Source: a virus
Lineage: Duplodnaviria > Heunggongvirae > Uroviricota > Caudoviricetes
Virus record (IMG/VR): IMGVR_UViG_2617270979_000005
Location: 1-17,402 of that record
Length of the DNA: 17,402 nt
Strand: one strand, 5' to 3'
A model generated the notes under the pieces. That model ran no database searches, was not told the DNA's origin, and was given only the letters and a program-made list of their open reading frames with translations. Below, piece after piece: positions 8,953 through 15,012 of this stretch; the stretch's first letter is position 1; the number at the start of each line of letters is the position of its first letter. The position numbers were made by a program, and so were the translations under genes.

Positions 8953-9723
8953 TCACTTTTCCGACACAATACGACCGGATGAATCGACAATCTGTCGAAC
9001 AATATCCCGGTGCTTGTACAGCTCCCGCAGCGCGGCGCAGACTCGCTCCCACTTCTGAACCTGACCTTTTGCCCGGCGCAGCTCGCGGTTAGCCACATGC
9101 AGCGATGGTAAAATCAGACCATCCGGATGTTTTCTGGTGAACGACGGCTGTGACTGCACTGTGACCGCCACACTTTCAGTTTTTATTTCTTCCTGTGTTT
9201 CCGCTTCCCGGACAGGTAACGCAATACCTGCTGGCTGAGGAATGGCTTTACCATCCGTTTCCGCTACGGATGCAGCTTCCGGCTCTGCCGGTAAATCAGC
9301 GCCCGGTATGCAGTAACGAAATTTACCGTTCTGATTTACGCGTGCCAGGCGCCCCGTTGCTGTTACGACCGCCAACGTGGAAGCAACCTTGCGAATGCTA
9401 ACACCGAACTTATCCGCCAGTTCCTCACACGTTTTAGCCCCATCCTGACAGATAAACTCAATCATCATGTCCGCGGTAACTTTTTGTTCGACCTCCCCGG
9501 TCAGCATATCCTGTGCTTCAGATTTTACTGGCCGCTCTTCGGTTACCCGGGATTCACCTTCGCCAGCCAGAAACCAGGTGTGACCAGTTTTATCAACGAC
9601 GCCATTTCTTTTGAGTTCCCACAGCTCGTTGACAGCCTCTTCACGACTGATTCCAAGGCGAGCTGCCACCACATGTGAAGAGGCTTTTTTCAGTGCTTTC
9701 AGTGCGTCAAATACGGTTTCCAT
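8953..9723 (-). CDS. Hypothetical nin-region protein (256 aa), acidic, possibly DUF1627-like
   Basis: ATG at 9723 preceded by GGAGG (8-nt spacer); N-terminal winged-helix-like segment 'AARLGISREEAVNELWELKRNG'. DUF1627 assignment is a weak recollection. Confidence 0.55.
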   Translation of the reverse strand: METVFDALKALKKASSHVVAARLGISREEAVNELWELKRNGVVDKTGHTWFLAGEGESRVTEERPVKSEAQDMLTGEVEQKVTADMMIEFICQDGAKTCEELADKFGVSIRKVASTLAVVTATGRLARVNQNGKFRYCIPGADLPAEPEAASVAETDGKAIPQPAGIALPVREAETQEEIKTESVAVTVQSQPSFTRKHPDGLILPSLHVANRELRRAKGQVQKWERVCAALRELYKHRDIVRQIVDSSGRIVSEK

Positions 9724-9756
9724 TAATATTTCCTCCGACAAAATCGTTTCTCAGAT

Positions 9757-12608: not shown

Positions 12609-12800
12609 ATGAGTACAGCCCTTTCCCCGATAATTTCTGAATTTGAAACAGTCGAACAAGAAAACAGCTATAACGAATGGTTGCGAACCAAAGTGGCAGC
12701 AAGCCTCTCAGATCCCCGTCCTGCAATTCCACATGACGAAGTAATGGCTGAAATGGAAAACCTTATTGCTCAATTAGCTGCAACGAACAGGAGTGAGTAA
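12609..12800 (+). CDS. Type II antitoxin (ParD/RHH-like) paired with the downstream ParE toxin
   Basis: 63-aa ORF; GAGGAGG RBS at 12594-12600; stop overlaps the toxin start (TAATG); family assignment by partner and size only. Confidence 0.65.
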   Translation: MSTALSPIISEFETVEQENSYNEWLRTKVAASLSDPRPAIPHDEVMAEMENLIAQLAATNRSE

Positions 12801-13090
12801 TGCTGCCCATTTTATGGCTACCTTCTGCACGTGATGATTTACGTCAGATCGTAGCCTATATTGCTAAGGAAAACCCTCCCGCTGCACGTAGACTAAAAAT
12901 ACGCATTGAAACATCAGTTTTGTCACTTACTGAACACCCTTATCTGTACCCACCGAGCGAAAGAGTTCCAAGTCTTCGTGAGATAGTGACTCATCCTAAC
13001 TACATAATACTTTACCGAGTAACAGCATCTAACATCGAGATCGTAAATGTAGTTCACTCACGAAGACAGTATCCAAACAAAACCTGTTAA
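12800..13090 (+). CDS. ParE/RelE-superfamily toxin
   Basis: 96-aa ORF; ParE-like pattern 'LWLPSARDDLRQIVAYIAKENPPAARRL … ILYRV … IEIVNVVHSRRQ'; translationally coupled to the antitoxin. Confidence 0.8.
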   Translation: MLPILWLPSARDDLRQIVAYIAKENPPAARRLKIRIETSVLSLTEHPYLYPPSERVPSLREIVTHPNYIILYRVTASNIEIVNVVHSRRQYPNKTC

Positions 13091-14290: not shown

Positions 14291-14596
14291 TTTATTCACA
14301 GGTGAGGTAGAGTGCGTGCGCCGGACACGGATAAGAATCCGGCACTGACAGTTTACTGAAAAGGATATATCCCTGAAAAGTCAGGGCATAACACGAAAGC
14401 GCCCGGAGAAGTTAGTCTCTCTGTATAGGTCGTCGTTAAATTTAATTCGATCGTGCGCTTCCGGTTGTGGCAATCCGCGAAATGGCGCGGCGGTAAGTAT
14501 GGCGGGGTTATTCCTTCCCCCGCTGAGGACACCGGGTTGTCAGGTTGACCATACGCTTAAGTGACAACCCCGCTGGCAACGCCCTCTGTTATCAAT

Positions 14597-14649
14597 TTTC
14601 TGGTGACGTTTGGCGGTATCAGTTTTACTCCGTGACTGCTCTGCCGCCC
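14597..14649 (+). ncRNA. dicF: DicF small regulatory RNA
   Basis: 53-nt stretch TTTCTGGTGACGTTTGGCGGTATCAGTTTTACTCCGTGACTGCTCTGCCGCCC followed by TTTTT matches the remembered DicF sequence; located between ydfC-like and dicB as in Qin. Confidence 0.85.
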
Positions 14650-14823
14650 TTTTTAAAGTGAATTTTGTGATGTGGTGAATGCGGCTGAGCGCACGCGGAA
14701 CAGTTAAAACCAAAAACAGTGTTATGGGTGGATTCTCTGTATCCGGCGTTAATTGTTAACTGGTTAACGTCACCTGGAGGCACCAGGCACCGCATCACAA
14801 AATTCATTGTTGAGGACGCGATA

Positions 14824-15012
14824 ATGGAAACGTTATTACCAAACGTTAATACGTCTGAAGGTTGTTTTGATATTGGTGTTCTGCTCAGTAACCGGGAGTT
14901 TACGGAAGATGCCATTAAGATGAGAAAATATGAACCTTATCTTCTCAATGATAATTCCATACTTTCCAGAATTGCCCTTCTTGAACTTGGTATTATCGGA
15001 GAACAGCAGTGA
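14824..15012 (+). CDS. dicB: DicB cell-division inhibitor homolog
   Basis: 62-aa ORF 'METLLPNVNTSEGCFDIGV…'; N-terminus matches remembered DicB (MKTLLPNVNTSEGCFEIGV…), C-terminus diverges; GAGGA RBS. Confidence 0.8.
   Translation: METLLPNVNTSEGCFDIGVLLSNREFTEDAIKMRKYEPYLLNDNSILSRIALLELGIIGEQQ

Follow-up and report, generated by a model that had tools for sequence, protein, structure and literature searches.

Host cell division is inhibited by two prophage products, DicF and DicB, and the setting of their relative output is under study. In E. coli K-12, a 72-nt form of DicF that depends on RNase III has been described (Faubladier, Cam and Bouche, 1990, as cited in PMC5069750 and PMC9438474). 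That RNase III processes the dicF-dicB region has been known since that publication, and the stem analysed below is largely a rediscovery of it. The K-12 dicBF transcript (ydfABC-dicF-dicB-ydfD) comes from the same locus with a near-identical spacer and, by the length given in the citing papers, its 72-nt DicF has a 3' end in the left arm of the inverted repeat studied here.

In the 16S/23S rRNA stems, the spacers of T7 early mRNA and the rnc and pnp leaders, a duplex of about two helical turns, either long-range or a hairpin, is cut by RNase III on both strands, and a single transcript is divided into its functional RNAs. The dicF-dicB duplex differs from the leader and spacer sites in that it encloses a conserved structured RNA and forms only after an intrinsic terminator has been read through.

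The DNA analysed is a 17,402-nt stretch of viral sequence (the window), which is a PPompW-type lambdoid prophage of E. coli. By blastn, the dicF-dicB region matches PPompW-type phage records with 100% identity over 241 nt and belongs to a different prophage from K-12 Qin. The two prophages are collinear here, and a window position equals the NC_000913.3 coordinate minus 1634785. Between K-12 Qin and the window, the spacer shows 2 differences in 301 aligned nt, one of which lies in the stem: C14791 is T in K-12, so that the pair G14674-C14791 becomes G-U. The DicF model of Rfam (RF00039) matches 14598-14649 at 76.7 bits, above its threshold of 48. Elsewhere, the window holds a sok antitoxin RNA (7454-7634, minus strand, 61 bits), two tRNA genes (882-955 and 1059-1131, both minus strand) and, at 12609-13090 between a repressor-like gene and a ydfA-like gene, two small overlapping ORFs of 63 and 96 amino acids that by eye resemble a RelE/ParE-type antitoxin/toxin pair.

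A conserved stem between DicF and dicB

The inverted repeat that brackets the dicF-dicB spacer is a real, conserved 21-bp RNA stem in the read-through transcript. A sequence-only reading of the window had singled out two 14-mers, TGAATTTTGTGATG (14659-14672) and CATCACAAAATTCA (14793-14806), as perfectly complementary, and both the coordinates and the complementarity are exact. The same reading took an adjacent GCGG/CCGC as an extension of the pairing, but this does not hold: GCGG occupies 14681-14684, 8 nt past the left arm, in a predicted internal hairpin. The repeat is instead extended inward by UGGUG (14673-14677), which pairs with CACCG (14788-14792) through a U14673-G14792 wobble and brings the helix to 19 pairs (an inverted repeat of 19 nt with 95% complementarity). 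Outward, A14657-U14808 and G14658-U14807 are added at the base, giving 21 uninterrupted pairs on the plus-strand RNA that enclose an interior of 110 nt (Table 1). The U-tract of the DicF terminator ends 2-3 nt before the stem. Since the stem lies 3' of this terminator, it is present only in transcripts that have read through it.

Table 1. Features of the dicF-dicB region, in window coordinates
Feature	Position	Strand	Basis or remark
DicF sRNA, 53-nt form including the terminator hairpin	14597-14649	+	NC_000913.3 dicF, 1649382-1649434
DicF terminator U-tract and AA (UUUUUAA)	14650-14656	+	Sequence
Stem, 5' arm	14657-14677	+	Holds the 14-mer 14659-14672; pair probabilities 0.8-1.0
Putative RNase III cleavage site in the 5' arm, where the 71- to 72-nt DicF would end	14667-14669	+	Position good to about 1 nt
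STnc100-like interior	14678-14787	+	MFE fold; family alignment A4 and consensus structure; blastn ends
Stem, 3' arm	14788-14808	+	Holds the 14-mer 14793-14806
Mapped K-12 RNA 3' end, interpreted as RNase III cleavage of the 3' arm	14798-14800	+	Term-seq, A14799, wild type
Match to Rfam STnc100 (RF02076)	14647-14856	+	38.7 bits, E = 6.6e-7, model 1-206 of 206
dicB Shine-Dalgarno (GAGGA)	14812-14816	+	Sequence; 4 nt 3' of the stem
dicB, 62 aa, AUG at 14824	14824-15012	+	Pfam PF05358 (DicB), 129.5 bits; RefSeq annotations

On its own, the inverted repeat is modestly significant, suggestive rather than overwhelming. The 14-nt repeat is the longest exact inverted repeat in the window with a loop of at most 300 nt, and the 21-bp stem is the longest helix when G-U pairs are allowed. 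Among 200 dinucleotide shuffles of the window, four contain an exact repeat of at least 14 nt, and two contain an uninterrupted helix of at least 21 bp, again with G-U allowed. Folding of the RNA from 14590 to 14830, proposed as a check in the sequence-only reading, produces the 21-pair stem with z = -4.08, and the pair probabilities remain at 0.8-1.0 in all five contexts (205 to 721 nt, both arms included). An 18-bp helix on the minus strand (9403-9462) was set aside; it lies inside a long ORF (8953-9741, minus strand) and is within the range expected by chance. The stem is convincing because it is conserved and carries compensatory changes, rather than because of the repeat alone.

A search of genome contigs with the DicB protein returned only two E. 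albertii loci. As these are too few for covariation, DNA motif scans of viral contigs were used. Copies linked to a DicF-type sRNA, taken from phage records, viral contigs and E. albertii, provided 15 distinct arm haplotypes, in which standard pairs fill 98.7% of the pair cells; shifting the 3' partner by 1-3 columns lowers the value to 35-52%. Three pairs are compensatory, a number reached in 0 of 500 shuffles, with each change found in one haplotype only: 14659:14806 (U-A to C-G) and 14670:14795 (A-U to G-C) in one copy (L161) and 14668:14797 (U-A to G-C) in another (L157). At four pairs the variation is one-sided, always through G-U; U14673-G14792 alternates with C-G, and 14663:14802 alternates between U-A and U-G. 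This one-sided variation is G-U compatible on the plus strand only. The same variants are A-C mismatches on the minus strand, and thus the structure belongs to the plus-strand RNA, which argues against a repeat that acts at the level of DNA. A 96-aa ORF of the minus strand runs across the region (14625-14915) and has no match in Pfam. In the copies upstream of kilR, the left arm is the same and the right arm has one bulged A. In the E. albertii copy L124 (about 1005-1060), DicF carries an internal deletion, its hairpin is altered, and 8 nt are inserted in the interior of the module; the stem of this copy differs from that of the window at two pairs, both in a G-U-compatible way.

An STnc100-like module inside the stem

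The stem closes a 4-way-junction RNA that is related to STnc100. In a permissive scan, the window copy aligns with the full length of the Rfam model, whose outer helix corresponds to the inverted repeat; its 38.7 bits lie below the 47-bit gathering threshold, and there is no match in gathering mode. The interior is predicted to form hairpins at 14681-14696, 14697-14744, 14745-14771 and 14773-14787, the last being CCUGG-AGGCA-CCAGG. With STnc100 and the related PasD sRNAs of EPEC, the window copy shares the core motif GGUGAAU ... CACCNGGAGGCACCNGGCACC, a location in prophages and an architecture of one closing and three internal helices. It differs from STnc100 in the first hairpin, which is GCGGC.../...GCGC in the window and CCCCC/GGGGG in STnc100, and in the closing helix: 7-8 bp in the family, where the Rfam model includes an internal loop, compared with 21 uninterrupted pairs in the window. 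In addition, high-scoring STnc100 members often stand in tandem beside tRNA clusters, whereas the window copy follows DicF.

Against phage genomes, blastn gave matches confined to the span from arm to arm (14644-14808), which directly precede kil in Rac-type phages and in Stx phages, and matches to the interior alone in P7 and D6. The latter gave rise to the idea of a c4-type antisense RNA in the spacer, which was rejected, as P7 carries the match in the ban operon, between tRNA-Thr and terB/tciA, and not in immI. Rfam detects no C4 in the window; in other phages, the module is followed by C4 and isrK. When viral contigs were scanned for the core motif GGTGAAT...CACCNGGAGGCACCNGGCACC, many loci were returned, and seven of them were sampled and all run against Rfam. 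Six of the seven score 68-161 bits with RF02076; the seventh (L013), which has the hairpin type of the window, gave no threshold-level match.

An invariant core and a common structure, comprising the closing helix and the internal helices, are shared by 50 non-redundant sequences (the window and 49 others). In the family consensus, 93.8% of the cells are paired compared with 80.6% in shuffled data, the covariation score is 0.385 compared with 0.144 (0 of 500 shuffles as high), and 16 of 28 consensus pairs show changes on both sides. The closing helix of this wider family is 7-8 bp long, made of GGUG/CACC and 3-4 covarying pairs, and any pairing beyond it is at the level of chance. The 21-bp closing helix is confined to copies that come after a DicF-type sRNA and its terminator, and these long-stem copies are found upstream of dicB, kilR, the isrK-C4-ant module or a 94-aa ORF.

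Several arrangements of these RNAs were noted in other contigs. High-scoring STnc100 elements occur as tandems of 2-4 copies by tRNA clusters (L011 2265-3380, L020 3121-3798, L021 342-1038 and L008 1121-1794), and the STnc100-like copy of P7 lies between tRNA genes (L002 2501-2616); this adjacency suggests co-processing with the tRNAs. On the minus strand of L162 (5482-5964), a DicF-like sRNA, a long-stem STnc100-like module, isrK, a C4 antisense RNA and an ant-like ORF follow one another, an order, seen in some phages, in which an antirepressor gene is preceded by four consecutive structured RNAs. In Rac-type and other prophages, both the DicF-like and the STnc100-like RNAs have scores of 33-44 bits (L126 1490-1723, L161 3265-3490 and L125 977-1233). 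These scores fall just below the Rfam gathering thresholds, and standard annotation would miss both RNAs.

Probable RNase III processing of the read-through transcript

Counted from the DicF 5' end at 14597, the 72 nt reported by the papers that cite the 1990 work lead to a 3' end at U14668 in the left arm, 12 bp from the base of the helix and 9 bp from its top. The partner cut predicted for this end, with a 2-nt 3' overhang, falls between 14798 and 14799. In Term-seq data from wild-type MG1655, a 3' end is listed at NC_000913.3 1649584 in two condition sheets, with average reads of 1034.9 and 753.4, an intrinsic-terminator score of 1.20 and a Rho score of 0.95 marked 'No' (Adams et al., 2021; PMC7815308); it is classed as a terminator of neither kind. 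This end is A14799 of the window, in the right arm, 25 nt upstream of dicB and at most 1 nt from the predicted cut. Conversely, an end at 14799 implies a 5'-arm cut between 14667 and 14668 if the overhang is 2 nt. The ends at 14668 and 14799 were obtained in separate studies by different methods; together they match a 2-nt 3' overhang with a deviation of at most 1 nt. The -25 end of dicB shares its table with 3' ends in the leaders of rnc (-121) and pnp (-119) (PMC7815308), a point of likeness to these leaders; a distance of 1 nt separates the pnp end from the known site that Gordon gives at 3311286. Near the paralogous kilR stem, the published tables examined list no Term-seq ends. In a coverage comparison of rnc- and wild-type cells, a peak in the dicF-dicB intergenic region at 1649470 has 26 reads against 0 and is marked 'Known: Yes' (PMC5371410). 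It corresponds to window position 14685, just inside the stem, a position that is approximate.

The rules derived for RNase III in vivo call for a duplex of about 22 bp, with a G-C among the paired positions between the cuts (PMC6212723). The 21 uninterrupted pairs of the stem agree with the length at which E. coli RNase III makes a double cleavage (about 20-22 bp), and G14667-C14798 is among the pairs between the inferred cuts. Because the stem coincides with the published ends and RNase III dependence is reported in the literature, the stem is taken as an RNase III substrate. The coordinates coincide by direct observation, the RNase III dependence comes from work on K-12 Qin, and with the two combined the stem is quite probably the substrate. 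We infer that both ends come from one staggered double cut within it. The proposal that a long stem serves as the RNase III site defining the DicF 3' end thus fares well, as the stem forms and the K-12 ends at 14668 and 14799 lie in its arms.

A simple course of events can be proposed. When polymerase reads through the DicF terminator, 14657-14677 would pair with 14788-14808 and close the 110-nt multi-hairpin module. RNase III would then make a staggered double cut near the middle of the helix, at about 14667/14668 in the 5' arm and about 14798/14799 in the 3' arm. Such a cut would give a longer DicF of about 72 nt, which could be trimmed back to the terminator hairpin, set free an RNA of about 132 nt that holds the structured interior, and leave a dicB mRNA with a 25-nt, 5'-monophosphate, single-stranded leader that carries the Shine-Dalgarno; the cut may in this way affect dicB expression, either by activating translation or by speeding up decay. 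A scan of the plus strand found no sigma-70-like promoter inside the dicF-dicB spacer. The dicB frame is open upstream to a GTG at 14719 (14719-15012, 97 aa), running through the structured RNA, and an extended frame of this kind is in line with the title of the article by Cam et al.

Other ends have been placed upstream of DicF. An imperfect long-range helix pairs 14387-14402 with 14455-14469, and a published 190-nt DicF that depends on RNase III would have its 5' end in the 3' arm of this helix, at about 14460-14464. This predicted helix may be the substrate for a second RNase III cut, upstream of DicF. A 2023 paper from the Vanderpool laboratory (J Bacteriol) discusses RNase III only for the 5' end of the 190-nt DicF; its numbering ('813/814', '1,146 nt'), which has no reliable mapping onto the window, was left out. 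In addition, a Term-seq 3' end with about 5400-5570 reads lies at 14583-14584 (NC_000913.3 1649368/1649369), 13 nt upstream of the DicF 5' end. It is probably the end of an upstream fragment left by RNase E cleavage and trimming.

Other functions of the repeat have to be weighed against cleavage by RNase III. The sequence-only reading had also offered, as an alternative, that the stem could occlude dicB translation, which is unsupported because the stem ends at 14808 and leaves both the Shine-Dalgarno and the AUG outside. In a broader form, the stem or an extension of it would hide the dicB ribosome-binding site, and RNase III cleavage or melting would activate dicB. The helix can in fact be extended past a bulged G14809, with UUUUUAA (14650-14656) pairing with UUGAGGA (14810-14816) across the Shine-Dalgarno; in long contexts the pairing probabilities between the Shine-Dalgarno and the U-tract region add up to about 0.55, and the stem base lies within the footprint of a ribosome, given the established footprint size. 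An operator that sequesters a ribosome-binding site holds the Shine-Dalgarno or start codon inside its helix, whereas the 14-nt repeat itself contains neither, and only a weak, non-conserved extension reaches the Shine-Dalgarno. This extension has 7 weak pairs, 3 of them G-U, that stack on the stem and face competition from an intragenic partner (14878-14882), and it is not kept upstream of kilR, where an A-run is the partner of the U-tract and the helix stops short of GGAG. We therefore regard a hidden ribosome-binding site as doubtful. A role of the repeat as DNA is far less plausible still. If the arms were the terminal inverted repeats of a small mobile element, a palindrome recognised by a protein or a point of recombination between phage modules, this would explain why the repeat-bounded module occurs in varied gene contexts (dicB, kilR and the ant module) and why blast matches stop at the arms. 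However, the variation is G-U compatible on one strand only and amounts to mismatches on the other strand or as DNA, the arms carry compensatory substitutions, and the wider family shows covariation of the inner pairs without conservation of the arm sequences. A MITE would have a conserved terminal repeat recognised as DNA, whereas these arms covary and their wobble changes are strand-specific; for a simple operator, the 110-nt spacing is too long.

A further possibility, compatible with cleavage by RNase III although on balance unlikely to be the main role, is that the stem chiefly closes and excises an autonomous sRNA of the STnc100/PasD type (about 132 nt, 14668-14799). This RNA would be a third product of dicBF with its own trans- or cis-function, and the DicF 3' end would be a by-product. 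The match of the interior to STnc100, the covarying 4-way junction common to the window and 49 family members, the scores of 68-161 bits for core-motif members against RF02076 and the homology breakpoints at the arms are all in keeping with such an RNA, as is the accumulation in wild-type K-12 of an RNA that ends at 14799; a 2026 preprint also relates PasD sRNAs to STnc100 by structure. Conversely, no RNA with a 5' end near 14668 has been reported, wild-type K-12 coverage at 14685 is 0 reads in one data set, and STnc100 has no known function. The family-wide closing helix is only 7-8 bp long, so excision by RNase III cannot be general to the STnc100 family. A more specific proposal, which we put forward tentatively and consider rather improbable as a whole, is that the spacer constitutes a discrete STnc100/PasD-type RNA, about 132 nt long and cut out of read-through transcripts by RNase III by way of the long stem, and that in this lineage the long stem evolved from a short closing helix, coupling the maturation of DicF, this RNA and DicB. 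If true, the operon would yield two small RNAs (DicF and the RNA of about 132 nt) plus the DicB protein.

Implications for lambdoid prophages

Leaving the 1990 original aside, the dicBF literature examined contains no description of the stem, of the partner cut at -25, of the conservation or of a relation to STnc100. To the known processing event, the present analysis adds the exact stem, its agreement with the Term-seq end, the compensatory changes and, as a modest addition, the link to STnc100/PasD. Three sets of K-12 data, published in 1990, 2017 and 2021, can be related to one another through this stem. A known RNase III event is placed on a specific, conserved 21-bp stem, which offers a precise target for mutagenesis. 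The occurrence of the same long stem upstream of kilR and of the ant module suggests that lambdoid prophages carry a reusable cassette with the order sRNA, terminator, processing stem and gene.
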